Positions 5,783 to 60,059 of a DNA stretch of 64,000 nt are shown here, piece by piece. Positions within the stretch are counted from its first letter, which is position 1, and each line of letters begins with the position of its first letter. The position numbers and the translations under genes are program-made. The notes beneath the pieces were generated by a model. That model saw nothing but the letters and a program-made list of their open reading frames with translations. It searched no databases and had not been told where the DNA came from. This DNA comes from Hormiphora californensis (lineage: Eukaryota > Animalia > Ctenophora), in the NCBI GenBank assembly GCA_020137815.1, contig CM035353.1, positions 4,898,001-4,962,000 of the forward strand. The letters run 5' to 3'.

Positions 5783-6196
5783 TCTCCACAAGCGTGTGGG
5801 ACAAATTTGATGAGTTTAGATGTTTTCTATCACACCATTTCTCAAAACATACTTTCTCTCTGGAAGAGTCTTCACCGCTCTTCTCCTCTCAACTCTCTCC
5901 CCGTAACTACGATCAGGCTCAATTAGATACACTCTCTTATAATTCTCAGTTGCCTCCTTTCAGTTTGTTGTCACAGTTGTCTTACAATTATACCGATATC
6001 AGGACTCAGAGTTTAGATATCGTTGCACAATAAGGTTGCTTGGCGTGAAAATTATCTCATATTGTTCTCATATTATCTCATATTGTTCTCATATTATCTC
6101 ATATTGTGAAGAATTGTCTAATATTGTTTCAATCAGACAACTATTTTCGGTTGTTTAGTATTCCTCCAATAACTTTCAAATTCAAACAGTGAAGTT

Positions 6197-23355: not shown

Positions 23356-24343
23356 TAGTTAGGGGATTTTAGTGAAAAAAGGGCCAAGTTATCAGCAAAA
23401 TTTTTAACAAGCTAATTTCTTCACCAATAGGTCCGGATAGGTGTCTAGTATCACCAAAAAAAAGTACACGATAATCGGAAGTGCGCACGTGCGCTGAGCG
23501 CGCAAGAAGTAAACACATGTAAATACATGTATTTCTAGCCTGGCACGAAAACCCAAAAACCATCTTAGGAGACGAGTAGAGAAAAAATCAAGGGCACTAG
23601 ATTGTGTAGCGTCCTCGCATTAGTGGGGGTAGGTGCTGGAATTAAGTCTCTATCTCATCTGGTTAATTAGATAATTGGATAATTAGATATGCGCATAACC
23701 GTATTTTGGCTATATGGCTATAGCCACTTAGGAATGGTTTAGAGACTTTTCATTGGTGCCATTTTGTTCAGAAAAAAATTTCAATCTAAGAGTTGTGGAA
23801 AAATTTAGAGCCTATCTCTTACCGTTTTGGCGTTATTTGCGGTCAAAGTATGCCAAATCAGTTGAAAATGCCAAAACGGTAAGAGATAGGCTCTAAATTT
23901 TTCCACAACTCTTAGATTGAAATTTTTTTCTGAACAAAATGGCACCAATGAAAAGTCTCTAAACCATTCCTAAGTGGCTATAGGCTATAGCCATATAGCC
24001 AAAATACGGTTATGCGCATATCTAATTATCCAATTATCTAATTAACCAGATGAGATAGAGACTTAATTCCAGCACCTACCCCCACTAATGCGAGGACGCT
24101 ACACAATCTAGTGCCCTTGATTTTTTCTCTACTCGTCTCCTAAGATGGTTTTTGGGTTTTCGTGCCAGGCTAGAAATACATGTATTTACATGTGTTTACT
24201 TCTTGCGCGCTCAGCGCGCGTGCGCACTTCCGATTATCGTGTACTTTTTTTTGGTGATACTAGACACCTATCCGGACCTATTGGTGAAGAAATTAGCTTG
24301 TTAAAAATTTTGCTGAAAAAAATATACTAAAATTCCCTAACTA
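23356..24343. mobile_element. ~1-kb foldback MITE with TAGT...ACTA termini and 3-bp TSD TGT (Academ-like)
   Basis: Arms ~23356-23831 and ~23868-24343 are nearly perfect complements. TGT is at 23353-23355 and 24344-24346. Confidence 0.88.
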
Positions 24344-28570: not shown

Positions 28571-29414
28571 GTAAGTGGTTCCAGTCTAGAACTGGGTTAG
28601 TATAGATCCACCTCTGGACCCCTTATACTAAGCAACATGTGGACCCCTTCTAACCCACCTCTGAGTCCTTTTACCTCATCAGTCAGCTCCCTACTAACTC
28701 CCTCTGAAACCTCTATTATATCTCACCTCTGGACTCTTCTAACCCACCTTTGAAGCCCCTTCTAACCCAACTCTGAACCCCTCCTAAATCAACTTATTAA
28801 CTCTTAATCCCTTTTAAACCACCTCTCGACCCCTACTAATTACTACCCCACTCCTCGAACCCTTCTAACCCACCCTTCAACCCCTTCTAACAAATCTCTC
28901 AGCTCCCTAATAACCCACCTCCGGACCCCTTCTAACTTACCTCTCGACCCCTTTTAAACCACCCTTTGAACACTTTTAACCCAACTCTAGTACCATTCTG
29001 ACCCACCTCTCGACCCCTAGTAACTCACCTCTGGGCCCCTTCTAACCTCCTTTTGACCGCTTCTATGTTCTAACCCACCTCTCGTACCCCTTTTAACCCC
29101 TTCTATCCCACCTTCCGACCTCTACTAACCCATCCCTCTAACCTTTCTAACCCACCTTCCGATAGGTGGGTTAGAAGGGGTCGGAACTTCTAATCCATCT
29201 CCCGTACCCCTTCTAAGCCACCTCTCGACCCCTAGTAACTTACCTCTGGACTTCTTCAAACCCACCCCTGGACCCCTTCAAACCCACCCCTAGACCCCTT
29301 CTAAACCACCCCTAAATCCCTTCTAACCCACCTCTAGACCCCTTCTAACTCACCTCTAGACCCCTTCTAACTCACCTCTCAATCCCTTATAGCCCACCTC
29401 TCGAGCCCTATTAA

Positions 29415-30150
29415 GGCCAGAGGGGGGGGGGGTCGACCGATATTTGACCCCCATTTTGGGCCATTTTCGGGGTTACCATCATGTGATAGCGCTTGGCATA
29501 CCGGACCAGATGGATATGACAAAATGTGTTGTGCGCGAACGGTCTGGGAGAAAAACGGGGTTAACTTTTGGCCTGATATCAATGTAAACCCCATTATTTA
29601 AGGACTGGTAGGGTTTTGGACATTCAATTTACGTGGATTTTTTATCGATCAAAAATGTGTTAATCTCCATAATTTTTGAACGGGGACCTTAATCAAAAAT
29701 CGCTACATCAGTTTCAGGCTACTAGGTCTGTAGAACAAGTGTGCCAAACGACAAGGTCTAGATCCTAGCCGTTATTTCAGGAATTGGCTAGTCCTGTGCA
29801 AAAATGGGGTTTAGAGGGGAGCCATAATGTCGATTTTTCCAGATTCTGTTAACCTCAAATAATTCAAAGACCAGTTGGACTTATGGTCTAAAAATTTGTA
29901 GAGTGATTCCTCTTGATAAGACGAAGTGTTTGGCACTAAATTGAATGTCCAAAACCCTACCAGTCCTTAAATAATGGGGTTTACATTGATATCAGGCCAA
30001 AAGTTAACCCCGTTTTTCTCCCAGACCGTTCGCGCACAACACATTTTGTCATATCCATCTGGTCCGGTATGCCAAGCGCTATCACATGACGGTAACCCCG
30101 AAAATGGCCCAAAATGGGGGTGAAAAATCGGTCGACCCCCCCCTCTGGCC
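29415..30150. mobile_element. MITE with ~215-bp TIRs, GG...CC termini and TTAA TSD (Kolobok-like)
   Basis: TTAA at 29411-29414 and 30151-30154. Arms span 29415-~29630 and ~29938-30150. Confidence 0.82.
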
Positions 30151-32862
30151 TTAAGTACTTACCCTTCCCTCGACCCCGTGGACCCATTAGCCTTTTAAGT
30201 TTTAACCCACCTCTCGACCCCTTTTAATCCACCTCTCGACCCCTAGTAACTCACCTCTTAACCCCTTCTAACTTACCCCTAGACCCCTTCTAACTCACCC
30301 TTCGACCTCTTCTAACTCACCCATAGACCCCTTCTAACTCTCAACCCCTTTTAACCCACCTCACCAGTCTCCACCTCTTCTAACCCACCCCTAGACCTCT
30401 TCTAAGTCACCTCTCAACCCCTTTTTACCCACCTCTCCACCTCTACTAAGTACTTACTCTTCCCTCGACCCCTTCTAACCCACCTCTCGACCCCTTCTAA
30501 CTCATCTTTCAACCCCTTTTAACCCACCTCTCGACCCCTATGAAGTAGTTACCCTTTCCTCGACCCCTTCTAACCAACCTCTCGACCACTAGTAACTCAC
30601 CGTGGACCCATTAGCCTTTTAAGTTTTAACCCACATCTCGACCCCTACCAAACCACCAAATCTCTAGACCCTTTCTAACCCACAGCACCTCTCATCACCT
30701 TTTATCCCACCTAGATTCTAACCTAGATGTTATCTCTCTATCTAGAGATCTAATCTTTGCATCCCTAGATGGTTTCTCTCCATCGCTAAATACTACATCG
30801 CTATCAAGACCAACATCGCCATCTCCAACATTCATGTTAGTACCCCACCCTAATTTTAAAGCTACCGGATACCCCATCCTCATTTATTACCCCATCTCTC
30901 AGTTAGCCCACGCTACCTCTCACTCTCAACTACTCAGGAGTCAGGTACCCTCTTTTTCTCCCTCCCCCTTCCCAAAAAGAGAGGGTACACCGTGCCCAAC
31001 AATTAGACCACGTCACCTCTCACTCTCACCTACTCAAACACTATGTCTCAAGTACCCGGCATCTCTACCACCCTACCCGTTGGGTACCCCACGCTGCTAG
31101 ATACCTATGAAATTTTGCTAGATGCCCCTAAAACCCCCTAAATACACCAATATATCCACTAGAAACCCCTCGGACTCTACAAAATACCCCTCAGAGCATT
31201 ATTCACGAACGGACACTATCACACCATGTCATACTCACAAACGGACACACACTAACATCGTTACTAAAATCTCTGTCTTTTCTCAGGTATTATTGACCAC
31301 GTTAGACCTTCCACGACCTTCCCCACGACAACTTTAAATTGCCAAGGTTTGTGATGAACTACAACGACATGGACACCTGAAACTCGCCATTTTCCAGGTA
31401 CAGTGTTGTCTTGTTCGACCCTCCTTCCCCGAACAAAACAAGTACAGTGTGGGAGCGGCCAAAATTCACGTGGGAGTCACGTGACACAACGTTACTTTAT
31501 GTGCACTATCTCTCTCTCTCTATCTATCTAGATATGTAACGGTTTCCAATTCAGGTGTGATGATTACTGCAGATAATCTAGACGAGTTCACTCTTCCTAT
31601 GGTTCCCACAATCAAGGGATGGCAAGGGAGGTAGGGCACATGTTTTTTCATCATCACGGGACTGTTGAAGTCGGTTAAGGCACCCACGGAGCTAAGCTGT
31701 GCATCAAGCTAACAATGGTCCTTAGATGGCCCTACCTCTGCTGATGGCTGTAAACTGCAAGGATTTCAGTGCAGTGGAGACATTGATTGTTAAATGTACT
31801 ATCCTGGAGCCTCATGAACAAGTTTAATGTGTAAGAGTGACTCTTGTATATCCGTCATTTCCCAATAATATTTCCCCTGTGCTGTATGTGTCTAGAGAGA
31901 GAGGGCGTGAGGAGACGAGTATTTTAATTTCAATTTAGGTGGACCCATAAAGGGAAGATCTATATACATATTTAGTGTCACCTTTACTTTATTTGTAAAC
32001 CTGTATATTTTGTAACATGATTTTTCCAAGTTTAGTTTCTTCACCTTGAAAATTGTTGTTTTGTTCGAACAAGGCAAGAAAGTTGCTCATGATGTCTTTA
32101 AAAAACAACCCCAACCGCCGATTGGCATCACTTTTCAGCAGCCCTCATGTCCAATTTGCCACAGTTTGATATAACTTTACGTCGCGCGCGTTTGTTAAAT
32201 CTCTTATCGAAAGTCTAAGTAAGTCGGCATTTCAATACCGCGCGTACGACCCCCTAGGCCCTTTAAGGGCCTGTAGCATAGGCCAATGGTGACTGGTGGG
32301 GCAGCTCTGACCAATCGTGGTGTGCGTTTCTGAGACCCCGGTGTCGTATTGTTGTTTCACAAAGTATCTTATTTTCTTTTTTATTCACGAACCCCAACAC
32401 CGCTTGACATCACTTTCCAACATACAACAGCCGAAGAGAAGCTGTCAAAGAGAGAAAGGGGGTAACCGTATGAAGAGTTAATCGCGATGAGTCTCATTCA
32501 CATTGGGTTCGATCATTCGTCCCCGGTGTTGGCCGTTGGGGTTTGGCCTTTGGGTACAAAACAATCATAAAATATTCTCTACAATAAATAAAATCTCACA
32601 CGTTTAAACATAGAAGTCTATGCTTCCTAGTCCTGCTGGGGTGTATTTCGTCCGACAACCTCTTAATGAATTGTTTACTCAAAGCTTCATGTGTTATTAC
32701 ATAATCGTCAGAACAATAACTTCAAAACTTTCAATTTCCACTTCTGCTCCTTCATTAAACGGTTATTGGAGTGCTGCAAGATGTCCTCTTCTGTGGGGGC
32801 ATTTGTTAAGAAGAATTATTGTTGTCTTCGCTCCGACACTCGCGGGGTTGAAAAGCGCTACG

Positions 32863-33470
32863 TTATATAAAGTTGTAAGGTGTAAAATGAATAAATTTAT
32901 GGTGTTGGTGGACAGGTAGCCACTCCAGGGCAAAGGTGGGTGTGGGTGCCCTGGGTGGTGGTGGTGGAGGAGGTGGGCGAGCATCAGTCAATACTGCCCG
33001 GGGCCGATAGACCTGGACCGGCAACTGTTCCGGGGGTGGTTGTTGAGGGGGAGGACGAGGTGGGGGTCCAGTGTTCCTTGGCCTCGTGCGGCTGAAAGAA
33101 AGTAAATGTGTTAAATCGAGTAGAATATTATTACACGGCAATAGTGGATATTGACATCTATCATTTGAATTGTATCAATCTCTGATTATTGGTTTGAATT
33201 TTGTCAATCTATGAGATATTTGTTATCTAGTATATTGGTAAGTGGTAACTCACCAGTGTTTCCTCAGGTGACCCAGCTTCTTGCACCGGTAACACCTTGG
33301 TCTCTCATAGGGCTTTTTGGGCCCATTACCCCTACTCCCCGAGGTAGAGGAGGGGCAGGGAGGTGGCCTGGAGGTGGTGGTGGTGGGGCGGGAAATCGTG
33401 CGTACATGCCCATATCGGCCATGGTGGCTACCCGGAGACCGTTCAAAATGCTTAGGACATTAATATCCAT
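32863..33470 (-). pseudogene. Spliced proline-rich CCHC zinc-knuckle gene, copy A (intron 33092-33253)
   Basis: Reads GNGPKKPYERPRCYRCKKLGHLRKH-TG|gtgagt...ttcag|C-RTRPRNTGPPPRPPPQQPPP. There is a frameshift upstream relative to the 34137-34228 copy. Confidence 0.7.
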
Positions 33471-33482
33471 CCTGCGTGAAGT

Positions 33483-33728
33483 AAGTTTGAGACAGTGAGC
33501 GGGCATCCCACTGGGGTTAACGCTATTTAGAAACTCTGTGGTGAGGTTAGATATTTCGTTAGAGTCGTCCTCAATCACTGTATCAATACTTCGGTACTCT
33601 CTGGGAGAAGTGTTAGGCTCAAAGATTTTGAGAATCTTATCATTCAACTTATTCACATCCTGATTGAGAGGTGTTACAATGACAAAGCGGGTCCTGTCAA
33701 CAGAAAAGTCAGGGAAAACAGTAGTCAA
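33483..33728 (-). mobile_element. Helitron PIF1-type helicase fragment
   Basis: IVTPLNQDVNKLN...YRSID...TEFLNSVNPSGMPAHCLKL matches the Helitron helicase motifs. Confidence 0.85.
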
Positions 33729-34136
33729 AATGCACTGGAGGGGATGTCAATTTGCATCCTGGTGGCATCTGGACAAAAAAAGGTTGGCAAATTATTTTGT
33801 TAAATCATAGAGCAGAGTTGAAATTGGTGTTGTAAGTTGAACTGCCCTGAATACGCATGATATTTCGGATATTGTAAAATTGACTGTGGCTTCAAAGGAG
33901 AGGGCAGGGACATTTTAGTAAGATCTGTGCGCACGAAACACAGTATTCCAAGGTGGATGCTGACATTGATTACTTGTGAATTGAATTAAAAAATTCGTGT
34001 TACATTGAAATTCTACTTTTATCAGTTTTTTGAAAAATAATTACTAATTACAGAAAACATTACAGTGATTAATATATTGAGTTCACTCACATACTATAAT
34101 ATGTCAGTGCCTCCTCGTCTGTACTGTACTCCCTGT

Positions 34137-37211: not shown

Positions 37212-37301
37212 ACATTCACACGCGATAATATTACCCCATTTTGAGTACAGTGTAGTTCTACACTGTACTCAAAATGGGGTAATATTATCGCGTGTGAATG
37301 T
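37212..37301. repeat. Perfect 90-bp palindrome with a 2-nt loop
   Basis: acattcacacgcg...gtgtag tt ctacac...cgcgtgtgaatgt. Confidence 0.92.
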
Positions 37302-37530: not shown

Positions 37531-37668
37531 TAACACGAAAACCAAAGAAAACGAATTTTCTGTGTTACGAACGTTTCATGGATAAACCAATCTTTAGACG
37601 TCTGAAGATTGGTTTATCCATGAACCGTTCGTAACACAGAAAATTCGTTTTCTTTGGTTTTCGTGTTA
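37531..37668. repeat. Spacerless palindrome with hammerhead-like cores (possible Penelope-like terminal repeat remnant)
   Basis: Centred on gacgtc. The two arms give the consensus CTGAAGA-ttgg-tttat-cca-t-GAAA-CGTT. Confidence 0.55.
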
Positions 37669-41071: not shown

Positions 41072-41228
41072 CAGTCGGACCCCGATTTACCGGGATGCTC
41101 GGGGGAAAGGGTTTTGCCCGGTAAATCGGGGTGTCCGGTATATCGGGGTCAAATGCCGTTAATTTCCTAGATCGGGGGAAATTTATCCTCCCGGTAAATC
41201 GGGGTTCCGGTAAATCGGGGTCCGACTG
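41072..41228. mobile_element. Tc1/mariner (pogo-like) MITE with TA TSD
   Basis: ta|cagtcggaccccgatttaccgg...ccggtaaatcggggtccgactg|ta. A right-half copy lies at ~52890-52963. Confidence 0.88.
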
Positions 41229-42959: not shown

Positions 42960-43261
42960 GGTTTTGAAAGTTCTTAGCCATATGAATCCTAACCTCTTTA
43001 CCAAAACGAAAGTTTCCCAAGTTTATACTTCCAAGACTTTCCATCCGCCATTTTCTGTTTGTGAACAGCCTTCTTCTCCAGCTTCGACCTAAAATTCTTG
43101 CTGACATGTCCAATACAGTCGACCTTGATCACCACATTACAGGAGTAACTGGGATCGTCATGCTTTTCCACCCAATCCTTCCTTTCCTCCGACCGTGCAT
43201 TAATCAGAGCCTCAGCCACCCTCTCCACTGCCTTCTCTGATATCATGATGTCCAGGTTCAC
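42960..43261 (-). mobile_element. Mutator-like transposase fragment, partly duplicated at ~44760-44885
   Basis: DPSY...VIKVDCIGHVSKNFRSKL...MADGK...GKL resembles the KxECVGHVQKRMG motif. Confidence 0.65.
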
Positions 43262-43869
43262 CCTTCCATACCAGCGGACAAAAATCGGGAATCGTCGTAT
43301 CTTTCAAGGACTTTCGGTCATTTTCTCTTTATACCGTTTTGCCACTAATATGCAGCTTATTTGGCTATCTCGCCCTAACTATCTACTCCTATTTTAAGGA
43401 TACTTATGATTTTTGCCCCAGGCTGAAAATACAGGTACAACTCCCACCCGGAAAAAACACCTCTGCCCTCGTGCCTCAGCTGGAGGCACTTCAGGATCCG
43501 TTCAGGGTATTATTCGGGACATTTTAGTGAAGAAATCAGCTGGTTATGATACTTTTGCCAAACCGACCCTTTTTTTCCCTAACTATTTTCCCAATTCTCG
43601 GTGACAAGCTGAAATCTTCCCTTTTAATGTTCTACTATTTGATACCCAAAATACAATACACAGTTCCTATTCCTAACCCAATGCAGTCCTTCTCCACAAC
43701 ATGCACTCCTTCTCCCAAACAAACAAACAAACGGGAACACGAATACACACAATGGCTATTGTTCAGTTCGTATGACATCGGTGTCCGTTATCCTGAATCC
43801 TTTGGTTTGGAACAACTTATATATGCTGTGAGCATGGTGTGTGCGAACTTTGTGGCATCCTGCTGCTAT

Positions 43870-45215
43870 GAAATCCATATTAAATTCTGCATGCAAGGAA
43901 AGTTACCAGTAATATTGATAATTGGTTTTATAAGCCTTGTTATAAGAGCGAAAGAGAGTAAACCAAACTATTAAGAAGCAAAGCACGTCCTTCTCATGAT
44001 TATTATTATTAACCCATTAAGTACTATTCACTCCATTTTGGGTACTGATTTAGACCAGTTCAATGCTCTTATCATTGATAAGAGCTTGTTTTGATAATTT
44101 CTATCTATGACGACCCGACTCACCGTTTTATAACTTCTTCTCTTGTAAAAAGTGGGTCTCCTTCCTTTGCTTTTTCATCGAACAATCGGGGTAATTTTTC
44201 CCGCTAATCTGTTGCTGGTGGGTATTGAGGAAGTGTCGATTTACCTAGAGAAAGAAACTTTCAAATGCAAACTCTTGGACGGACCATTCTCTAGTTGGTA
44301 TACACTCTCGCATATCAAACTGTCCTTTTGTACGGCCAAACTGGCCGGGCTCAGGAATTGCACGACACACGAAACAAAATAAAGGTCTCTCCTGAATGCG
44401 TCCTTTGATAGTGAACGTATAAGTCCAGGGGGCTTCTTGTTCGGCTGCTTGCGGGTCAGGAGGTCATTTCCTCATCTTCACTTATAATGGTAGCCTCCGC
44501 CCTCCCTCCCCGGAGCCACCCGGTCGTGGGCCCACACTGTAGTAAAGAGATGTTATTAGCTTTTGGTTGCCATTCGGTGATGACTGATGCATTATGTACA
44601 CAGTCACAGCGTGACGTGTGTACAATGGGCAGACCTGGTGTCTCTCATCAGGGTCTAGTCTGAGACAGTGAAACGATCCCGCCATTATCTTCCTATCTCT
44701 CCTGCTGCCTCCAACGCCTCTGCCGTGGTGCACTCTTTGTTGGTGGAGCTCTTCACCGAGTTTTTAAAGTTCTTATGAATCCTAACCTCTTTACCAAAAC
44801 GAAAGTTTCCCAAGTTTAGACTTCCAAGACTTTCCATCCGCCATTTTCTGTTTGTGAACAGCCTTTTTCTCCAGCTTCGACCTTGAATTGGTGGTATACG
44901 CTCGAGCACTTCCATTCGTCCCCCTTTTCCTTAAAAATAAGCGTTTTCAATTTGTTACTTCATTTATAAACTCCAATATTAAATTCTGCATGCAAGGAAA
45001 ATTACCAGTAATATTGATAATTGCTTTTGTAAGCTTTGTTATAAGAGCGAAAGAGAGTAAACCAAACTATTAAGAAGTAAAGCACGTCCTTCTCATGATT
45101 ATTATTATTAACCCATTAATTACTAGCTCTATCTACCTCATTTTGGAGACTGATTTAGCCCAGTTTAATGCTCTTACCACTGATAAGAGCTTGTTTTGTT
45201 AATTCCTATCTATTC
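43870..45215 (+). repeat. Direct duplication of ~240 bp (~43875-44110 and ~44973-45213)
   Basis: atattaaattctgcatgcaagga...tgataagagcttgtttt occurs twice. Confidence 0.85.
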
Positions 45216-45594
45216 CAATAAATAATGGCAAGTTTTGATTTGGCTGTGATAGTTTTTGTCGCGTCCTGATCAGCTTTATACATTGGCAGCAATCGGTTGT
45301 TTGTGTTGAGATTGTGTAGTAGCCCAGCAATCATGATTATTACAATTTTATTATACGCCCAGATACGCCTAGTTTCTGGCGGGCTTCGTAGTGCGTCACC
45401 ACAAATGTCGAGGTATGCTTTTGTATCTCCATCTCCGACGGCAACTGAGAGTTTATCAACTTTTGTTTCTTTTTTCTAGGTCTCGCTCGATACTCCTGTG
45501 GGTGAGAATACAAGCGAGATGGCCATATTTCTATCAGTATAAAGAAGTCTGGTGCCGGGCACTTCGTTTGTTTTTCACAATAAGAAGTATGATA

Positions 45595-46018
45595 TTAAGT
45601 CCAAAAACCAATTAAATAAATTAGTTTGGATGCCCGGGCCCATGTGGTGTCACGGGGGTAACACCTTTAGGCTACTGCCATAATTAACGGCATATCTCGT
45701 TAATTGTTAATTGTTATCCTTCAATCTGCCTATCTCTATCTATCTCTCTCAGTCTCTCTCTCTCACTCTCTCTCACACACTATTTCTCTCTCTCACTTTC
45801 TCTCTCACTGTTTCTTTCACTCAACTCTCTTTTTTTCTCTCCTCTTATTTATCTCTTCGTCTTTCTTGATTATATCGCACTCTTTCTATCCTAATTTCCT
45901 TTGCCTTTATCTCTCCCGATATCCATCATTTACGACAGTAGCCTAAAGGTGTTACCCCCGTGACACCACATGGGCCCGGGCATCCAAACTAATTTATTTA
46001 ATTGGTTTTTGGACTTAA
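45595..46018. repeat. Inverted repeat, ~83-bp arms around a CT-rich spacer
   Basis: 45595-45677 is complementary to 45936-46018. Confidence 0.88.
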
Positions 46019-46094
46019 TTTCTGTTCTTTTTGGTGTAAAATAGAAAAAGCTATTTTTTCTGATTTCTGCATATTTTCGAATTTGAATAATTCA

Positions 46095-46545
46095 TAAATA
46101 TACGACTAACGGTGAGAGATACGACTTTTTGTTGGGGGGACGACCCCCCATAAATCGACTATTTTGCGCCGGAATATGTCCATGAAAACGTTCTAGGACC
46201 AGCCGAAGTGGAAATATTAAGAATATGCATTAAATCATGAACCGGTGCATAAATATGCAAATAACGGCATAACGGTGCGAGATAGAGATTTTTGTCCCGA
46301 GTAAGACCCCCCATAAATCGACTATTTTGCGTCGAAATATGTCCATGAAAACGTTCTAAGACGAGCCGAACTGGAAATATTTAGAATATGCATAAAATCA
46401 TGAATCGGTGCATAAATATGCAAATAACGGCTAAACGGTGCGAGATACGACTTTTTGTCCGGGGGACAACCCCCCATAAGTTGACTATTTTACGTCGAAA
46501 TATGTCCATGAAAACGTTCTAGGACCATCTGAAGTGAAAATATTG
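46095..46545 (+). repeat. Tandem ~170-bp unit x~2.7, with another copy at ~47967-48080
   Basis: aacggtgcgagata...cccccataaatcgactatttt...catgaaaacgttcta is repeated. Confidence 0.8.
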
Positions 46546-47499
46546 AAAACTAGAAAGCCCATTGAAGTCCCTCACCCCCCCCCCCCACCGTCCCCATGTC
46601 CCCCCCCCCTCTTACACGGTCGCTTGTAGTGGGAAAACGGTAATGGAAAACGAAGATACAGTAAGACGACGCGCAACCGTGACCAATCAGGGCGCTAGTA
46701 CGTGCTGACACATGAACTTTTTGCTGCGCGTTATGCACCGTGCGCGTCTCCTTACTGTATTTTCCGTTACCGTATTTTGACTGCAAGCAGCACTGTAACT
46801 CTTTGTCTCTCCATGTCGGGGTAAAGAATACGGAGGTTGGTAGACCGTAGAGCGCTGGTGATAAACATCAAGGGAAATCCCGCTGATTAACATGTAGAAT
46901 CAGGTGATAAAGATCCGTAGAATTGTAGCTGTGTAGAGAATCAACGGGGTACGTAGGTAGAAAGGCTTTGGCAATCATGGCGGCCCCAGTAGTAGATCCC
47001 AAAGCACCACGAAACACCACACAGGAACACGCAACAAACAATCAACAACATGCACGTGCAGTATCACCCTCCAATACCCATCCCAAGCCAGCTCCTTGGC
47101 AACCCCCCTCTATTTGCACGTGATGATAGGACATACTCCTCCTCCTCATCACGACGTTCATTTGTACTTTATAATAAGGACTAGAGAGCCCAGGCAAAAG
47201 ACCCAAAACTACTTTCGCCCCCTACTGACTCCCCCACCCCTATCGAATCCTCTCAATATCTACTGACTGCTGTCGCCCCACATTATTGAATACTCATTCC
47301 TCAACACCCTCCTTCCCCCCGCCCCCGCTATGTTGACCAACTCACCCCATAACCCCCTTACAGCCAGTTGGAGTCCTATAACATCCCCCCCCCCCCGTCT
47401 CCATGTCTCTCTCTCTCTCCACCTCTCCATCCCCTATCCCCCTCTCTCTCTATCCCTCTCACCCCATCATTCGATTCCCTCCCCCCCTCACTCTCACTC

Positions 47500-47551
<52 letters not shown>

Positions 47552-50449
47552 TCTCCCCCTCTTTCTCTTTATCGTCGTTTCTTCATATCGGGCTGGTGAA
47601 TATAATGGAAGCTGGTACAGGGAAGTCTTTAGAGTACTGCAGCTGAAGAACATACCGAATCATGTGATAAAAATCTGTAGAACTGGAGCTGTGTAGAGTT
47701 ATTAAAGCTGGGATACGTTGGTAGAAAATCTTTGGCATTCATCGGGGCCGCAGCAGTAGATGGCCAAACACCACAAAACACCACAGGAACACGCAATACA
47801 ACACCCAACAACATGCACGTGCAGTATTAACACTCTTGCCCACCATCATGGCAACTCCCCAAACCCCCCACCAACCACCCCTAACAACACGTCAATTTTC
47901 CACGTGCAAACCCTAAAAACCCCCTCCCCCAATTTTGTCTTGCAAGCATCTCTGCTTTATAATATAGATATGCATAAAATCGTGAATAGGTGCATAAATA
48001 TGCAAATAACGGCTTAACGGTGCGAGATAGAGATTTTTGTCCCGAGTAAGACCCCCCATAAATCGACCATTGCGCGTCGACTAAGATCGGTTTCAAGTCT
48101 TTATGACCTTCGAGTCGTGTCATATCGCAACCATGGCTAAAATGAATATTTAATGACTAATTAATGAATAATTAATGAACTATGGCGATTTCGAAGTTCT
48201 CACACAGCTATTACCGAGCGCAATGATGTAAGGAACCACTGTTCCAAACGGCAAGTCTCTACTATTTGTGGTTTAGGAGAACACTCAAAGATAAAAAAGC
48301 GTCCTCCCCCCTCCCCCTCCCCTCCTTTACATTTTTGCATTTTGGGACCCCTCTGGTAAATTTTTACCTTACATACGATCGTTCTGAAAATTTGCATGCC
48401 TCTTCTCCTATATGAGGGCACTCAGAGTACAAAATTTCAGCTCTCTACTTCATCTGGAACATGCTTTTTTAAAGCATCAAAAACCTCGAAATCTGCAATG
48501 GTATATAATAGTAGCACTGGCAGTTTCAGGCGCTTGTGTGTAGAAGTGTTGCGTGTGCTCTCTCTTTTGTTTTTTGAGTTAGAGGGTATTTCTAAGGTGG
48601 GGGCTCTGCCCCCACACCCCCGTTTCTGTTACTATTTTTTCAACCTCCATGTCCAGTTTGCCCTTGCTCCATCAAACCCATCTTTCATGTCCAAAATGAA
48701 GATATTTAACATGATTTTGCCATATATAATACATGCTATAGTACATACGTGTATAGAACATATAATGTACGAACATGCATAAACCTCCGGTTCCAAAATT
48801 ACCGACGAACGTCAGCGACATAATGTTCTGCATGTGCTCACTTTCATCTTCATAGTGGCACGTATACTAAACAGCCGCGCAACGTGCAAGTGCTCGCTGA
48901 GGGCCACTTGTATAGTCTATCTCGGTTTAGGGCACGTTTGTGTCTCCCATTTGCGTGTCTTTTGACGTAACGCTCTGAAACTTTAAATATACTATGGTAA
49001 CTTAATTTAGAAGATGACCCCATAAAAGCTAAATGATTGAGCGAAAATCACTCTGACAACTTCAACACCGTAGGTGCTATCAAGAAGATTTTATGGGGTC
49101 ATCGAGAAATAGTAGTTTTAGAGATGTCTACAAAGTTTCACCTCGATTCTCCTTAAAACCACTGAGTAATTGAATTGTCTTGGTACTGATCAAGTGACTT
49201 CAATTTTAGCGTGCCTCGCGACGTCTATGATCTGAACCTTGGCGCGCTCCTTCCGGTCCCACTAATTCAAATTAGGCGATAATTAGTGCGGTTAGGCTGA
49301 TAGTATCAGTGATACAGTAGTTTACGTAATTTGGGAACCCCTTCCTGTCATACTCAACTGAACCCAGTGCTGACACAGAGTCTCAAGTGTACTTTCTTTA
49401 TAAAGATGGTAAAAGTTGCTAGTCGTGGTGGTAATGTTGCCGAAATGTCCCAGTTGGTTGGCGCGCTCCGTCAGAGCTGCAGTGAACTGTGAAACTGAAC
49501 ACCCTAAATTTAATCTCGATCAGGTTATTGATGGAGCTCACAATTGATCATGCAATGAATATACCTGTTGTTAAGAATAGTGTTTCCACTGACCATGGAT
49601 TACATCGAATTGGTGGTGATGACTGATGATATATTGAGCGATCTGTGATTATTCCACCTATATTGACCTAAGAAAAGGATAGAAAATAGTTTAGATGGTT
49701 TAGATCTACCTCCCTAACACCAACAGTAACAATCTACTTAGATTCTCTTGATACCATTGATATCATATTCTGTATCTAATCAATGGCTGGGTAACTTTCA
49801 AAGTCATAAACCGACCGGACCAAGTAAGCAACCATCAGATTCCATTATTTAGGTTACGTGACTGGTTATCAACAAATCAGGGACACGTATTTCCTGGTCC
49901 GGTCGGTTCCTGTTCAAAACTTACCATGTTCAAAGAACGGCATTAGGTTTCTATCTCAAATCTCAAGTCTCAATCCGGCTTCAAATGACAGATATTCCGA
50001 ATTTGAATGAAATGAGTGCAGCTTTTTTGTCAACCTGACAGTGATAGAGAGGGTGTAAAAGGGATGCTGCATAAATAAATCAATTGACAACTTTAAGATG
50101 AAAGAAGTTTAGAAGAATTTAGCCTGATAAGTGACTTCTTTGATCTTAAATCTTAAATAAATAATGGACGCCAATTTCACTTAATTCGAGAAAGTAAATT
50201 GTATTTTAATGATTGGATTGATGTGTTGCTTGATTTTCCACCAGGTAAGACCTCAGGGCCGCACTGTTCACTAATTTCAATTGGAGGGATCAACTATCAA
50301 CAACTTCATATCCTTGTTCCTCCTTCTTCACCGGCCCGCAATCAACTCAAGAAATCGGGATTCCTTCGTAGTTTAGTCCTTTTATGTCAGATTGGGATGT
50401 GGTTGTAGTATCGGGATCCTAACCATCTCTCTCTCAACTACCTGTGGGT

Positions 50450-50851
50450 TGGAAGAGTGGGGGTTCACTGGGACTGGGGTAGGAAAAGAGTGGGGGTTCA
50501 CTGGGAGTGGGGTAGGAAAAGAGTGGGGGTTTAGTGGGGTAGCCTTGAGTAAAACACAGGGTACAAATAGATAGCATGTAAAACCGTACCTCCGTTGAAG
50601 ATGATACAGTTGTGTAAGATCCATAATGCCTCATCTAAGAACTGATAGGTACACGTCCACATGCCTGCTTTAGCCTTCTGCCGCAGGGTACCTGTATATG
50701 TAGGGTGCAACTGTTAGACATGAGGAAAAGAGTGGGGGTTTACTGGGACTGGGGTAGGAAAAGATTGGGGGTTCACTGGGAGTGGGGTAGGAAAAGAGTG
50801 GGGGTTTACTGGGACTGTACCCTGTGTTTTACTCAAGGCTACCCCACTAAA
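50450..50851. repeat. Two arrays of a 33-bp tandem repeat plus a 35-bp inverted pair
   Basis: Unit gagtgggggttcactgggactggggtaggaaaa. 50530-50565 is complementary to 50816-50851. Confidence 0.8.
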
Positions 50852-50945
50852 AAATTCAATATGACTCATTATCACTTTTCATTGCCAACAAATAACTTGT
50901 CTCAACCAACTGCAGCACAACACCCAAAAGTGGAAAATAACTCAC

Positions 50946-51115
50946 CACCTAGCCGCGTAATGACCGGAACCAGAACAGCGGTAACAGATCGGGGGAGCAG
51001 GCGGGGTGGGTTCACCGCGTTGTAACGTTCGGGAGCGGTTGTGGGCCTGATCGTGGTGGGACTTGGTTGAGCAGTTTGTACAGTAAATCAAATGCCATCT
51101 CTTGTTTGGTCATGG
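50946..51115 (-). pseudogene. Zinc-knuckle exon, copy C (one degenerate and one split CCHC knuckle)
   Basis: Reads PNKRWHLIYCTNCSTKSHH...EPTPPAPPICYRCSGSGHYAAR-TG|gtgagt. It is out of frame with its acceptor and with the nearby ATG. Confidence 0.65.
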
Positions 51116-51294
51116 CTGAACTGTTGTGATGTGAGTTTTTGTGAATGATACACTAAAGATTGGGATATTGGGACAGTGGGAGTGGGGCAGTGTGAAAGAA
51201 AGAACTTTGAAATATCTAAAATAAATAAAATAATAATTAATAAAGTGATTCTGATGTTGACAAACATGTCCGGGGTAGAAATAATGGGGGGAAA

Positions 51295-51777
51295 CTATTT
51301 TTCGTCCATAAGAGGCTTGGTAATATCTAACTCTCTAGTAAGAGACCTCCATTTCTCCATGGTCATGGATACTACAACCTGAGAGGGGTGAATGGCCCGT
51401 GTTGTCCCCGGTGTTACCGGAATATCAGCACCATCCCCACCGCCCCAAATTGAAGGGTACTTTTTCCCGAATTTTACCACCGGAATACGATCATCATCGA
51501 GAAAGAGTTTCACCCTACCGTCTTTGACAAGGAATGACAAGTGGAATATGTTCTCTACAGTGGTTGAGAAGGAGGTTGGGTGGATAATTAACTCGAAGAA
51601 GGGGACATGTGGGTAGGGAGAGTTAGGGGCCCCAGTTAGCTGATACACAGATTCCATAACCCGTTTCGCCTCCTTCACTGTGGCTTCCTCCACATCTACC
51701 ACTTGGGCAGCAACACGGTCCCCGTCCAGGATGGGGCGCTCATTGTGAGGTAGGTCGGGTGCATCGTGTATGGTCAT
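51295..51777 (-). CDS. NSMCE4: Nse4/EID-family kleisin (SMC5/6 subunit), C-terminal domain only
   Basis: PFFELIIHPTSFSTTVENIFHLSFLVKDGRV...QVVVSMTMEKWRSL is the Nse4 C-terminal signature. At 160 aa it lacks the N-terminal domain. Confidence 0.85.
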   Translation of the reverse strand: MTIHDAPDLPHNERPILDGDRVAAQVVDVEEATVKEAKRVMESVYQLTGAPNSPYPHVPFFELIIHPTSFSTTVENIFHLSFLVKDGRVKLFLDDDRIPVVKFGKKYPSIWGGGDGADIPVTPGTTRAIHPSQVVVSMTMEKWRSLTRELDITKPLMDEK

Positions 51778-51905
51778 GGCTAAACGGTTGTGATGTGAGT
51801 TTTTGTGAATGATTGGGATATTGGGACAGTGGGAGTGGGGCAGTGTGAGGGAGAGAAAGAAAGAACTGAACTGATAAAATGAAATCTAAATTAAAGTGAT
51901 TGCAA

Positions 51906-52720
51906 TCACCATTTTGCTAGCCGCTTTGAAACCACTACCAGGGTTTCCGAATCTGCCGTCCTCTTTTTGTTATCCTCAACTTTCACGACAGCAAAGCTTC
52001 TATCAAGCTCCTCGATAAGCTCTTCCTCGATGTTTAGTTCTAGTTTTATGTCAAAACCAGGAAATTCCCGCTTTTCAGCTTTCGCAACAACACACTCAAA
52101 CCGTCTGTTGATAGAAGGGTCGCTCTTGGGCCCACTATCTGCTCCTATGAAGCTATCAATCAGTTTATCCACTGCCTCTACCTCCTCGGGAAGGCAGGGA
52201 GAGGAGGGTAGGGGAGGATAGAGCTGTGATTTAACCTCGTCTGTTAGGGGAAGTTGGAAGACGTGGAAGAAGGCGGTGTGAGGTTTTGTGACAGGGAGTA
52301 GGCAGACTAGCTGGGAATCTGCTCCTTCCTTCTTTACCAACCTAGGTGGAGAGAGAAATAGTTGTTAAATGAAAGTTGGAACTGTTATATTACCTAATAA
52401 TCGACCATAAAATCTCACCACGCCCTAGCTACGATGCAAACAGAGTTTCGTTGTAAAAAGATTAGAACTATCATCATGACAGATTCACACCATAACTGGG
52501 AGGAGTGTCTGTGTAAACTGGTGCCTGCTAACAAGCCTACACGTGTAGTACAACAACTAACGGTGCAGTGTGTGTTGTTACACAGTGTATCTAATTAACT
52601 GATGTAATTAATTACATAATTACCTGCAAATTGCCACCAGACCCAGTTCCTTGAGAGCTATAACAAAAGCAGCTAATGCCTGACCTTTAATTGGGTCATC
52701 TGCTGGTGCCATTAACAAGC
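51906..52720 (-). pseudogene. XRCC5: Ku80-like fragment, two exons (~52720-52624 and 52341-51906)
   Basis: Reads LLMAPADDPIKGQALAAFVIALKELGLVAICR|LVKKEGADSQLVCLLP...QLPLTDEVK...P...AVDKLIDSF...RRFECV, across a phase-2 GT-AG intron (52342-52623). There is an in-frame stop and no acceptor just upstream. Confidence 0.8.
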
Positions 52721-54529
52721 GTCAAAATTGCGATTCGATGGGCCTCATGGGGATCACATATCTGTTCTTTCGAACCGTCTAATTACCGGCAAGACATGCA
52801 ATAAGATGCACCGATTCGAAACACGATTCGGACGTGGTTTTTCAAAAAATTTTCAAAAAAAAAATTTCAAAAAAAAATTTCAAAAATTTTTGGGGGAAAT
52901 TTATCCTGCCGTTAAATCGGGGTGCCGCTAAATCGGGGGCCGTTAAATCGGGGTCCGACTGTATATCTTCAGCATCTCGTTTTGGAGGTTTCAGGGTCCA
53001 CTCCTTTGATAATGGGAGGAGTTAACTTACAATTGTGATCAACCGATATTTCCGGGATTTGTCGCTGATGATGTGCTTTCCCAAGATCTAGGCAATTACT
53101 TTTTCTGGTTTATACCGCTGCAAAATATTTTATTATTTAATCACAGTGTCACACCAACCGCTTCAACTAAGGTGTGTTGTAACTATGGGTAATGGGGCTT
53201 TGTGTGGTAACAATAGACAACTTAGTTGCACAGTCATATATGTCACTTGGGCCCTGTGCATCGCATCTCCAAGAGGTCCAAAGTCCAAGCCGCCATCTCT
53301 TAGTGCAGTTCCGGCTTCCTGTCGATTCGGCCTCCATCATGCATCAAGGTCTGGCAGGCTTGTCATGCTGTTGCCACTTATTTATGTCCCTGATCAAATG
53401 GAGCTGATGTGAACTAACAATTTTGCACATAGCAGATGAATGTCCGCCCACGTTATGTCCCGGACCCCCATTATATACCACCTCTCTTTAACTCAGCCTT
53501 GTATCACTTTATTGGTGTATGGTGTAAGAGCGGGACGAAGTTATATCTTATTTGAGTGACTTTGTGATAAATTGTGCGTAAACTTAAACTTAAACTATTA
53601 CCCCGTGCCCGCTTGATTAATAGTGGATGTATTATGCAGGATCTTTCTTAAACATTTCATGCCCTTTCCACCTTTGGACTGCAAATCACAGTATTTTTTA
53701 GACAGCCCCCTAAAACGAGTGGCGGGTCTTTTTCTTGGTGTGGGTACAGTGTTTCCAGTAAACTCGATAAAGACGACCGTCATGCCGATGCTCCATTATG
53801 CTCCCAAGGGTCTCCATGTATGCCTCAGAGCATGGCAGGGTGAGGAGGATGACCAAGAGCTCCAGAGTCCAGGGATGGCTTTGGGAGGTGGGCAAAAGAT
53901 GTTAGCCTCTTCAGGGTGTTCTCAAGGGTCTTCGTTGTCCTCATGGCCTCCTGATCTCTCTCCCTCAGCGGCCCCGATGTGATGATGGAGGACAGGAGGG
54001 TAAGGTCGGGTTGGGATGTGGTCTAGAACTCCCAGTCTTGGAGGAAGGGAGGGAGTGCCAGAGTTTCCTGGAGGGATCCATGTAGAGGATGAAGTTGATT
54101 GATGTTACGGCGCCCTTCTCCACCCCAATATTCATGTCCCTCGAACAGATAGTGTTTCGCAGCTGCCTGGTCGTAGTATCCACCTTCTTTACAACTGGGT
54201 AATGCGACTTTATCAATGAAAAGAATAGGGATCCCTAAAAAAGTGCTGGTGTACCATTATAGGGTTGTGTTGGCACACGGAGAAGGTGGGAGAGGGACAC
54301 AACAAGAGTGGCTTCCCAATCCACCACTCCTGGTACACCACGCACTCCCATGCGACTTATAAACATAAATAAATAAATAAATAGTAACCAATCTCATCAT
54401 TTTACGTTAAAAGTTCAACTTCGTGCATATTGATGGGCACGATCTTCCTCCTGTTCCCTCGAAGGGCTTTATCAATGGTGCATGAGGTATTTTTTACAAA
54501 GTTCACATAAAATTAATAAATTTCGGGAG

Positions 54530-54880
54530 CCTTGCTCCTTTTTCGTTGGCTAGAGTCAGATCTAGTGTTGATGAGTGTCCCGCCTCCTTTCTTGTTGCAA
54601 GGCTGATGTTGTTGTGAAGTACTTTACCATTATCTGATATATCCTGTTGGATAACTGTGTCCCTTTTCCCATATGTGATCTTGGCCAGATCCATAGAGGG
54701 GTCCCTAAATACAGATTTCTTTTGGTTCTGATGTTGTTTGTAAACGTTCGATATCGACACCTGTAGACACAAACATGTCCAGTAATTGAGGTAACAGCAG
54801 TAATTGCCCTTCTGAATTCTGATTTGTAAAAAAATACCCAGGGTTTCCCCTTTTTTTGCTGTCCCAACCTTGAAGGGCTG
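54530..54880 (-). mobile_element. Possible LINE AP-endonuclease remnant
   Basis: ATRKEAGHSSTLDLTLAN resembles the C-terminal APE motif. The region is frameshifted. Confidence 0.35.
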
Positions 54881-55469
54881 GTGTCACCGTCCGCGGCATC
54901 GTGATGATTGGAGTAGGGGCCACTACTAGGGGACCTTCACACTGGTCGCGCGTGTGAAGAGGACATTAGTTTTATTAGCTTTTTAATTTGAACACCTGAA
55001 TAAACGTCGTTTTCCTGAATGCCTGAATATTAGAACCCACGCTAACACACACGATACCAGTTTGGAGGTCCCCGAGTGGCCCCCACTCCAATCATCCCTT
55101 TTTTTCCTGATGGCCTGATGTCAACTTTGAAAGTCCCGAAGAATGAGTGCCAGTCCCGCCTGCTACTCCCGTTGTTAGTTCTCATTTGCAGGTGGACCAG
55201 TGAAATCTAGAAAACTCTGAGCAGCGCATGTACGGAGGGCGCGGCGCGTGGGCTTTATGAAAAGGCCCGCGCGTCAACAATGTAAAACTCTTGTTTCCCG
55301 CGCCCAGTCTTCAGTTCGCGAGAGTTCTAGCATTTCCGCCAACCGATTTCCCGCTTTGCCGGTCTTCCTTCTCTCTTGGTTGTTTGCTTTTAATTTAATG
55401 AGGAGAATTTCATGGTTTATCTCTTCATCCCTAATTTGTGTTAAACACTAGTTTAAATATTCTTGCTGC

Positions 55470-55700
55470 TCAGGCATGTAGGGGAAGTTTTGAAAGTGGT
55501 GGGGCCAAATTTTTTTGGTCACGTGATATGACATACACTGACACTGCATACCCCGCGTATTTTCCATTTGCCTGCTCGTCCCCGTACACCACAATGGAAA
55601 TGTTGTCGTCTTTCTTTACTGTCTGGCGACCATCAGTCACCAAGTTTCTCTTGCCGTCAAAGTAGGCGGAATGTATGGCTTGTCCCTCCAAATCTGCCAG
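55470..55700 (-). mobile_element. Degraded hAT-like transposase fragment
   Basis: AYFDGKR...NISIV...GKYAG resembles the YFDGRKD motif and is probably the same type as 59051-59420. Confidence 0.45.
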
Positions 55701-57519
55701 AGCCCTCTTCCCCGACCGGTAGATTTCCTACCTCAGCTTCTTCTCGTCATGACAACTAGTCGGGTGTCACCATGACCATAGAGTCTTCACAGGGCATTTT
55801 CCGAGAATACATCAGTGATTCTTATCAATTTCTCACCTAGTTCATTTAGTCCTGACCTACATTTTGATATTTAAATGTCCCGGAAAGTTTCTAAAATTAC
55901 ACACGACTTATATTACTCGGTTTGGGTCGGTTTGGGTCCCAGTGGATGTGGTTGGGATTCTGTGCCTGGGAGTGTGGCATATCAACTTCCATCTTAATTG
56001 CAGTTGTATTATTGTAATATTACCATACGTAGTTTATTGATTGAGGGCTCCCTTACCAACAATACGCAGTTTCTTTACTAGTGTAGAAAGCATTGTTGAT
56101 AATGCAGCTGGCAGTGATCCTGGGATCATGTTTTTCTCATGAACAGGCGAAACCTTTCCCTTAGATTTATGAGTTTTACATCGTTTACAAATCCAGTCTA
56201 TTCGATATTTTCACAACTCCTTGTAGGTAATGACGCTTACTGCAATGTTTGCACTCTAGGTAAACACTCCATCTCCTCCTTAAACTCTTCGGCATGTCCT
56301 TTTCACTTTTTAACTTTTGTTTGGTAGCAGTTTCTGTCATATTATTATTACAATTGGGCATAAACCTTATGGGAAGCGGGGGATAAACAAATCGTTTCGT
56401 GCAAGGAACTCTTCAGACACTTATAAGTTCAAGTATTTACATTTACTATTTACAAAAACAAACAAGGAAGTTTTAGTTCAACATTTACTATTTATATATA
56501 TCACCAGGAGTGCTATTGCTATTGCTATTGCTATCATGTACACGTGTTTTGTGTTGCACCATATTTTATTTTAGGGCGGTCGTGTACGTAATAATGTTTA
56601 CTACATTGCCAAATGCGGGTTATCAACGTTTTCCTTCGGTTCAAAAGTTCCTTAGTCAGCCGCACACCAGGCAGGTGTAAGAGAGATAAAACTGATAGTC
56701 TTGTTTCAATATTCGTTTTCACTTTTCTGTTCGTCAAAAGAAATTGTCATATACGAACAATGTGGTATACTTCTGCCATTGTGCCATCTCCATGGCAGTT
56801 GGAGGCCCCAGGATCCTCTGTGGGGGCATCGCAAACTACGGCACTAGAACAGAATCAAAGCGGCACTTTTATTTCACTTTGGAAACTTATTTTCATGTTA
56901 CCTGTTTATTCTCGGGCAGGTGAATCTTCGTTCATCCCCAAGCCACTCTACTACGGCCCATTTTTCCATCGTAAACTAAGGCTCAGGGATTAGCTTCTTA
57001 TATTACTTGCTTATGAAGTATGAACATTTTCGGGTTTGTTTAGGTAGATCAGAATCAAGGCCAGGTCAGGTTAAGATCTGCAGATGCTTTCAGATATGGT
57101 TCTTAGGTATTTACCGTTTCCTTTAATACTGACAGCCCTCTCGTGTGGGCACAACTCTCATCACTAGAAAATTTTGATGAATTCTTGAATTCCTCTAATC
57201 CCTGGGCTGGACTTAACGCATCCCGTCCGTCTCCCGAAGTATCGACTCGCCCTCACACTTGCAGTCCCATATTCATCTTCTGGCTTGCATTGAAGAGTCC
57301 CAATTGTCCCCAGAGGTTATCCTGCTTAATTCCAAAATGACTGTCCAAAAGTCAACAGCGCCAGACTTAACGCAAATATATTGCCACAACTAAGGTTCCC
57401 TGTTAACTGGTCATTGATATTCCAGCTCACATCCGTATAGGGATTAAAAAGTTGTACAAAATCCCGAAAAACAGCAACACTATCAATGAGCGTCGCATCC
57501 TTGAAAGTTGCTCTACTCA

Positions 57520-59050: not shown

Positions 59051-59420
59051 CTATTTCGACGTTGTTGACGCTAAACATATGCGGTACGTATATCTCGCAT
59101 CGTTGGATAGCTTTTGGATAGCTGCTTCATCCAACTCGTCCAGCTCCACATCTCGAAACTTGCCACCGGTTTGCTCCATAAATCGGTGCTCAGTTCCTCC
59201 CCAATTGTAGGCCATGTAGGGTCTAATGTAGGGCCGGTCATGGTGCTGTTTGAGGTGGTATTTATCCCCAAAAACTTGAATAGTTTCTTGAGGGGAAGCT
59301 CTCCGTGGTGAAGCAGGCATACATTCCACTGCAGTGTCCGTCCCACCATACTTTGTATGTGAACGAGAGCCCCGACCATCCGCCCGATGAGAAAAGCCTC
59401 TTACAACAGCCTCATAGGTT
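59051..59420 (-). mobile_element. Frameshifted hAT-like transposase fragment
   Basis: GALVHIQSMVGRTLQWNVCLLHHGELPLKKLF (CxxH motif), continuing in another frame as LSNDARYTYRIC. Confidence 0.65.
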
Positions 59421-60059
59421 GCCAAATTCGCCCAGTACTGCCGCAGTGCATGACGGCTGTGCATGACAAACTTCCTGTCTATTTGGAGGGAAGGACAGCT
59501 ACTCCCCTGATCAGTACTGAGCATCTGTTCATAGGCCGTGGTGTCACTGAAGAATGTGGCAACTCTGGTGGGTATAGGCATGAGAGATAGTGCCTGGTTC
59601 CGTATCTCCCCCTGCCGCCTCCTTCTCCTGTTTCACCGCCCTCTTCAGTATTAGCTCAAGCACATGTGCCCCGTCCCACAGCCACAACATCCTCCGCTTG
59701 TCAGCACGTTCAATATGTTCCCATCGCAGGGCTTGATAACCAACCTTGCTAGGTAGAGTTTTCCCTGTTATGTTACATTTAAATTATATTGTTAATATTT
59801 GTCATCTTTGACATCCGGGGGATTTTAGGCCCATTTTAGACAATCGATCTATTGCGGCATGGTCAATACAATCATTTTTATAGAGATAAACGAGAATATT
59901 CACGTGTACGCATGGTACTACGGTGTACACCTGTCATCAATCATTAGACAGTCACTGGTACGGTGGTGTTGCTGAAAACAATACTGAATATTATCTACCA
60001 TATTTGCTACTACATAGTTTAATGTTTTGGTATCGAAGTCTGACTCAAGAATATCCAAT

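Follow-up and report, generated by a model that had tools for sequence, protein, structure and literature searches.

Why should parts of Ku80 and Nse4, two repair genes that are usually single-copy, lie together with a zinc-knuckle exon on one strand of comb-jelly DNA, and what are the two related spacers between them? The question is raised by a 64-kb stretch of the Hormiphora californensis genome (contig CM035353.1; referred to as the window), which has about 43% GC and contains two 100-N gaps. The answer preferred here, tentatively and at slightly less than even confidence, is that a start module heads a short Nse4 gene under selection, which would encode the C-terminal domain only and whose product would attach to the SMC5 head while leaving the SMC5/6 ring open.

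Chain layout and spacer analysis

The Ku80 piece, the Nse4 piece and the knuckle exon all lie on the minus strand, with gaps of 128 and 181 nt (Table 1). A preliminary description of this DNA had reported three head-to-tail pieces on that strand, spacers that share about 110 bp and both end in AG, and a first spacer opening with TG/GTGATT. The coordinates and motifs were recomputed and hold, the shared sequence was borne out by alignment and shuffling, and the TG/GTGATT was found in the sequence.

The two spacers align with 79% column identity (78% over 153 columns by blastn, E 2.5e-27) and have exact blocks of 38, 24, 11 and 10 nt in common; their alignment score was reached by 0 of 1000 shuffles. 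The spacer core was found at two places in the 64 kb, against 0.01 expected. Both spacers end in AG/CCATGACCA, with an AG/CCATG junction. They are poor in G (6%), spacer 1 is free of AG for about 85 nt before its final AG, and neither folds better than shuffled versions (z +0.8 and +1.5), which marks them as unstructured. The signals AATAAA and ATTAAA are absent from both, and no copy of a leader was found in the 64-kb window. The spacer motif was encountered at 52 metagenome loci, none of them with the remaining spacer, Nse4 or Ku80, and at none in viral contigs. The GTGATT of spacer 1 is one half of a perfect 14-nt palindrome (51896-51909) that the first spacer bases complete; this donor-like motif may have arisen by fold-back at the junction rather than as an intron donor.

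Table 1. Features of the chain and of the elements adjoining it (positions in the window; a slash marks a splice junction).
Feature	Position	Strand	Description
Small element	50530..50851	.	36-nt perfect inverted ends; inside knuckle intron
Knuckle first exon	50946..51113	-	frameshifted; ATG frame stops at 51014-51012; CCHC from 50986 in other frame, ends TG/GTGAGT
Spacer 2	51294-51114	-	181 nt; about 45 nt of its own sequence, then module copy 2; final AG 51117-51116
Nse4 C-terminal winged-helix domain	51295..51690	-	complete, with stop, intronless
Leading codons of Nse4 frame	51691..51777	-	29 open codons from ATG, in frame with Nse4
Spacer 1 (start module copy 1)	51905-51778	-	128 nt; final AG 51781-51780
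Ku80 exon 2	51906..52341	-	Ku80 as far as about 51955; about 14 unrelated codons and TGA follow; remaining Ku80 C-terminus absent
Ku80 intron	52342..52623	-	282 nt, GT-AG, phase 2, native position
Ku80 exon 1	52624..52712	-	89 nt, opens at internal in-frame Met; tblastn with P0006 residues 180-210
Transposon arm	52712..52961	-	one arm of a non-autonomous DNA transposon, palindromic and in high copy; CAGTCGG terminal repeat preceded by TA

Contig support and native genes

Contigs from public runs were used: X1 and X3 (sample S1), X6 (sample S2) and X10. Runs X3, X6 and X10 were compared over 50500-53500, where a fifth run (X9) gave no match, and X6 and X1 over 50862-52728; counts from the contig tables refer to the best matches listed. 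In X1, five contigs with zero differing letters tile 50862-52728, and X3 also tiles the chain. S2 also has Ku80, spacer 1 and Nse4, which differ from the window at 4 of about 1,390 nt. Positions 50862-51113 and 51240-51302 are uncovered in run X6, in agreement with its word share (0.67 and 0.74 against 0.69 computed), and this hole was not counted as evidence.

The junction between the end of spacer 1 and Nse4 lies within one contig in both samples. None of the contigs listed extends 31 letters beyond both ends of a spacer core; the order of the pieces therefore depends on the assembly and on matched depths, which in X1 are 18 and 20 across spacer 1 and 47 and 53 across spacer 2. Other copies of the spacer, three or more, occur among the contigs. 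A joint skipping from 51186 to 51834 was considered as a deletion between the spacers and was rejected; the loose end at 51872 belongs to a third spacer copy instead. Another joint (51259-51305) hints at a further junction of an Nse4 end with a spacer, its short side being 21 letters. In both S1 runs the contig depth over 50862-51495 is 2.3 to 4.6 times that of the 5′ part, and there is a break at 51495; additional identical copies of this region may be joined to other sequence.

Native-type Ku80 and Nse4 exist elsewhere: contigs from two samples run on past both breakpoints and continue as ordinary Ku80 and Nse4, so neither piece in the window is the native gene. The possibility that this is the sole native Ku80/Nse4 locus, which the preliminary description had named as fatal to its idea of gene capture, is set aside by these contigs.

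Ku80 piece

Ku80 homology extends from about 52715 to 51955 and corresponds to residues 180-340 of Pleurobrachia bachei Ku80 (P0006). Exon 2 is identical to P0006 210-340 at 108 of 131 residues, and the piece also matches residues 323-457 of P0004; P0006 and P0004 both carry the Pfam Ku family. Identification was achieved with a full HMMER scan and cluster members, the piece alone giving no Pfam, PDB or word-index match. Homology to the Ku80 barrel and arm is present; a complete set of vWA, barrel and C-terminal domain is not, and no further part of Ku80 was found in the window by tblastn. From the in-frame ATG at 52712 runs an intact two-exon frame of 174 codons. The final codons (about 14) before spacer 1 were rejected as Ku80: native-type contigs diverge at 51955, and two X1 contigs that depart from the window there continue like P0006 (8 of 9 residues, read by hand).

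A Ku80-type contig of X6 departs at 52343 into a pyrimidine tract and AG, that is, an intron end, which places the Ku80 intron at its native site; as the native intron was kept, Ku80 was copied as DNA. An X6 Ku80 contig also leaves the window at 52715 and extends for 246 letters, and the transposon arm has the same length. The metagenome protein P0002 is identical to the Ku80 piece at 85 of 94 residues (window 52346-52065), and its sequence, too, starts within the end of this intron; it may reveal if the Ku80 paralog is present in other comb jellies.

Nse4 piece

An unbroken frame of 160 codons opens at the ATG after spacer 1 and holds only the C-terminal Nse4 domain (Pfam Nse4_C, E 9e-25, 87 bits against a cut-off of 26). 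The piece is identical to P0001 at 113 of 129 residues, with homology beginning at 51690, which is P0001 residue 187, and it matches the EID3 and yeast Nse4 chains. The EID3 alignment begins at query residue 30, the first Nse4 codon; the piece is therefore the whole C-terminal domain and nothing more. The Nse3/MAGE-binding domain (PF15412) matches P0001 and is absent from the window frame, and no N-terminal Nse4 was found in the window by tblastn. Close relatives of the Ku80-piece and Nse4-piece proteins were found only among P. bachei models.

The first 29 codons after spacer 1 were rejected as Nse4: they are unrecognisable, and contigs of native type diverge at 51691. By chance, an in-frame stretch of this length (29 codons) would stay open in a quarter of cases, and apart from CCATGACCA these codons have no significant likeness to the knuckle exon (score reached by 2899 of 5000 shuffles).

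Two further sequences have a similar start. The P. bachei gene model P0008 (125 aa) begins four residues before the same Nse4 boundary; its core is almost wholly kept (59 of 61 residues), its first helix much less so (6 of 16). A second Nse4 piece headed by a spacer, on one contig in both samples, has its spacer end 56 nt before Nse4; it is 83% like that of the window, has lost 36 nt of the variable loop without a shift of frame, and stops at 51304. Judged from lengths only, its ATG would be in frame.

Sister contigs from both samples leave the window at 51691 with the ten residues that precede this point in P0001, and one of them continues for 588 further letters, enough for the 186 missing Nse4 codons. 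The window-type contig is unbroken across 51691 in all three DNA runs, so no near-identical full-length Nse4 parent showed. A metagenome scan with the Nse4 alignment gave 97 pattern matches, none of which was confirmed. The AlphaFold model, built from three sequences, has a mean pLDDT of 37 and was given no weight. Run X10 (presumed RNA), which is silent on expression, yielded a 124-nt Nse4 piece that is 81% alike as well as short repeat matches. An X1 contig with long unlike flanks matches 51354-51389 only (36 nt) and has two letters in common with the X10 Nse4 piece; it may represent a more distant Nse4 copy or a chance match.

Knuckle unit, transposons and surroundings

The ATG after spacer 2 opens a frame that stops after 33 codons, and the knuckle lies in a different frame. 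The knuckle itself is a weak zf-CCHC match (E 0.008, under the cut-off) with its last Cys split by an intron; no family name was given by two atlas searches (best 0.87 and 0.77). No convincing AG/C acceptor was found after the small element in this intron.

At the other end of the chain the transposon arm meets the Ku80 piece over about 4 common bases (TTAA), and position 52712 has very high summed depth together with loose ends of the transposon family. Of the CAGTCGG family the window contains a complete 155-nt copy (41072-41228) and the half copy at 52.7-53.0 kb; no partner arm was found beyond the far side of the chain. A Pack-TIR element with paired terminal repeats and target duplication was thus not recovered here, the sole inverted copy (41074) pairing with 41226 within a small element of its own. 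Helitrons are marked by a 3′ hairpin followed by CTRR before T, a 5′ TC end and an A/T insertion site; no such 3′ end was found on the minus strand over 44058-57167. Loose matches to it number 21 in the 64 kb, and two of these, on the plus strand, lie inside the Ku80 intron.

Several other features of the window were recorded. A Pif1/Helitron-type helicase fragment (33256-33746, minus strand; Pif1_2B, E 0.004, under the cut-off) runs directly into a proline-rich CCHC knuckle exon, in which a 162-nt intron interrupts the last Cys; the same strand carries related knuckle copies near 34150 and 61970. Palindromes are present as well: one of about 930 nt (95% identity) occupies 23389-24319, smaller ones lie at 114-331, 37212-37301 and 37531-37668, and 221-nt inverted arms at 29411-30154. 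On the plus strand are a rhodopsin-type receptor frame (6173-6832, E 1e-14) and a retroelement RNase H frame (9227-10207, E 5e-17); on the minus strand, a weak Mutator-like fragment (43001-43303, E 0.009) and, upstream of the chain, a broken coding-like stretch (53700-54260) and a 193-codon open frame (59054-59632), both of which are without a significant Pfam family.

Age and selection

Between the Ku80 piece and a native-type contig there are 35 differences in 215 nt. Of the 23 listed, 17 are silent and 6 are replacements (pN/pS 0.10, p 1e-7), and all 6 are on the side of the window, the contig being equal to P. bachei at each; about 31 replacements would be expected if a neutral copy carried half of the silent changes. 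The Nse4 piece differs from two sister contigs at 42 and 43 sites; of the 14 in common, 10 are silent and 4 are replacements (pN/pS 0.12, p 2e-4), and, being those common to both sister contigs, these listed sites favour saturated silent positions. Under neutral drift of 0.2 per site 36% of residues would change, and in a simulation at 0.2 changes per site both frames stayed free of stops in 45 of 2000 copies. Three of the S2 differences concern the Nse4 frame, and the two visible there are both replacements (51677 V to A, 51692 V to E).

The pieces are thus 16-18% diverged from their sister copies with mostly silent changes, which argues against fresh capture. By their substitution patterns both are old duplicates with a signal of selection, which may stem from full-length paralogs that no longer exist.

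Role of the spacers

In the preliminary description the spacer had been interpreted as a duplicated intron of the knuckle gene. The sequences do not bear this out. Spacer 1 is unlike the knuckle introns at 33.1, 50.9 and 61.9 kb, its alignment scores being reached by 218, 964 and 365 of 1000 shuffles, respectively. In the knuckle genes at 50986 and 33294 the last Cys is split as TG/GTGAGT, and the 33 kb copy resumes at AG/C; the spacers share neither the likeness nor the in-frame splice of this TG/GT...AG/C pattern. When TG/GT at 51910 is spliced to the AG at 51780, 13 wrong-frame residues of Nse4 are read and then a stop, and a search for a donor-like GT in spacer 2 found none.

What follows the spacers is more telling. 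Spacer 2 leads into MTKQEMAF, and other spacer copies, read by hand from contig letters, into MTSQELAF and MTCQE, with three silent third-position changes within the first nine codons. The ATG lies 9 nt from the fixed spacer end in the window, 13 nt in the MTSQELAF copy and 5 nt in the MTCQE copy, which are three different phases that no choice of AG brings to one. An ATG at three phases with a conserved MTxQE indicates a start codon, not an internal exon, and the spacer is accordingly regarded, with good though not full confidence, as a repeated gene-start module rather than an intron. On sequence grounds this module likely derives from the start region of a multi-copy knuckle gene family and carries a spliced-leader acceptor.

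Leader acceptance is the likeliest role of the spacers, to judge from the acceptor and ATG anatomy, the unstructured low-G sequence and the abundance of leaders in Hormiphora; alternatively, they may be a cis-intron in the 5′-untranslated region. A leader is reported on 56% of full-length Iso-Seq reads of Hormiphora, which belongs to the same family as Pleurobrachia (PMC8527503).

Proposed mechanism and rival explanations

The repeated start module, the open frame and the old copies with mostly silent changes together point to a likely short gene. Duplication and recombination at the DNA level would have placed the start region of the family before paralog pieces. A leader spliced at 51779 and 51115 would then give separate mRNAs, not fusion proteins, and the middle mRNA would encode 29 residues and the Nse4 winged helix. 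Nse4 binds Smc5 through its C-terminal half, and Nse1 and Nse3 through its N-terminal half (PMC3045436), and cleaved kleisin fragments of cohesin can remain with the SMC core (PMC9586560); by these precedents the short protein would occupy SMC5, where it is predicted to compete with or regulate the native kleisin. In this haplotype the units on either side seem damaged, Ku80 being cut by a transposon arm and the knuckle frameshifted.

Damage of this kind is also what would be expected if full-length Ku80 and Nse4 paralogs, long under selection, had recently been broken and shuffled with pieces of the knuckle repeat, leaving a pseudogene whose frame has yet to decay. This account is a real possibility, if on balance doubtful. 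Besides the frameshifted knuckle, the short common stretch at which the transposon arm cuts Ku80 is as in template-switch repair (PMC8277862), the two S2 differences seen in the Nse4 frame each change a residue, the window is rich in fragments such as the Pif1 piece that leads into a knuckle exon (33.3-33.7 kb), and the raised S1 depth at 50862-51495 is a hint in the same direction. Against it, a near-identical full-length parent appeared in none of three runs, the second spacer-headed Nse4 piece, 17% away, retains its frame and stop position, the short P. bachei model has the same start, and random breaks are unlikely to hit a domain start twice. A Helitron-like capture of Ku80 and Nse4 between copies of the knuckle intron, with cis-splicing into chimeric transcripts, had been one of two inferences in the preliminary description and is now very unlikely. 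Its core of duplicated host-gene pieces stands, native-type genes being present elsewhere; TG/GT at 51910 fits the knuckle donor pattern, the Ku80 tail is weakly like the end of a knuckle exon (78 of 5000 shuffles; equalled by 101 of 3876 window tiles), and a Pif1 helicase fragment adjoins another knuckle copy 17 kb away. The knuckle intron, the Helitron and the freshness of the capture do not stand: the spacer is unlike all three introns, the Ku80-Nse4 splice is out of frame, spacer 2 is without a donor-like GT, the hairpin with CTRRT is absent from the minus strand between 44.1 and 57.1 kb, and the pieces are old and show a selection signal.

The other inference, a working polycistron of Ku80 piece, Nse4 piece and knuckle resolved by leader splicing at the two AGs, fares differently in its parts. 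Strand, spacing and an acceptor beside the ATG agree with a spliced-leader operon: the gaps, 128 and 181 nt long, fall within the range seen between nematode cistrons, about 100 nt (PMC7986045), the Ku80 frame is intact from its ATG, and the acceptor-plus-ATG anatomy is retained in the present reading, given the sister copies that lead into MTxQE at three phases. Intact units were not found; the third is frameshifted and its intron has no good acceptor, the first lacks its 5′ end, where half a transposon lies, and neither spacer has a common poly(A) signal. The frameshift and the cut make a working three-gene operon highly improbable. Least probable of all is an assembly error that joined pieces from different loci at the repeated spacer. 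Such an error would be in keeping with the missing bridge across the spacer cores, the other spacer copies and the gaps in the window; it is opposed by the difference-free tiling of the chain, the depths matched across each spacer and the spacer-1/Nse4 junction inside one contig of both samples.

Relation to known systems and significance

The chain joins known themes, namely chimeric gene birth and truncated kleisin paralogs. Mammalian EID1, EID2 and EID2b are, like the Nse4 of the window, short paralogs of one part of the Nse4 kleisin with a full-length gene alongside; as described, they consist of the N-terminal MAGE-binding part without the winged helix needed for SMC5, whereas the comb-jelly pieces have only the winged helix and lack the Nse3-binding domain (PMC3045436). 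The decoy idea is based on fragments of yeast cohesin Mcd1/Scc1, which illustrate that a lone C-terminal kleisin piece can remain bound to the SMC core; those fragments arise by proteolysis and belong to cohesin, whereas the piece in the window would be a separate gene and concern SMC5/6, and the binding is predicted (PMC9586560). As in Pack-TIR and Helitron capture, gene pieces were copied at the DNA level, an intron was kept and the transposon junction has a short common stretch (PMC8277862); unlike there, paired terminal repeats and a Helitron 3′ end are absent around the chain, and the pieces, at 16-18% divergence and with changes that are mostly silent, are unlike neutral copies of the native genes. 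With the leader operons of nematodes and tunicates the chain has in common a single strand, short spacing, an AG just before the downstream ATG and a leader-splicing lineage (PMC7986045); it differs in having a single sequence repeated as its spacers, damage in two of its three units, and leader sites that are predicted.

Full-text searches, which covered the smaller part of the subscription journals and no supplements, returned no paper on comb-jelly Nse4 and only an unrelated match for comb-jelly Ku80; gene annotations in supplements could already list these models. Among the papers retrieved on Pleurobrachia and operons, none was on comb-jelly operons by its title.

A bolder extension, which is unlikely but worth stating, is that the module is a portable starter of about 130 bases, with leader acceptor and ATG, that would yield capped, translatable mRNAs from promoterless pieces lying within a transcribed row. 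It would have founded, in two or more species, a selected family of Nse4 proteins reduced to the winged helix, which cap the SMC5 head and tune or block SMC5/6; beside a trimmed Ku80 this would amount to a DNA-repair decoy cassette, possibly serving a carrier mobile element.

If the pieces are debris of broken paralogs, the locus still records unexpected old paralogs of Ku80 and Nse4. If the start module is true, it would represent a route to new genes that is special to leader-splicing animals, in which a fragment needs only an acceptor and an ATG. The short Nse4 genes, if real, would be a naturally occurring kleisin with the C-terminal part alone, a mirror image of the EID proteins of mammals, and would offer a tool for asking whether a competing winged helix can regulate SMC5/6.
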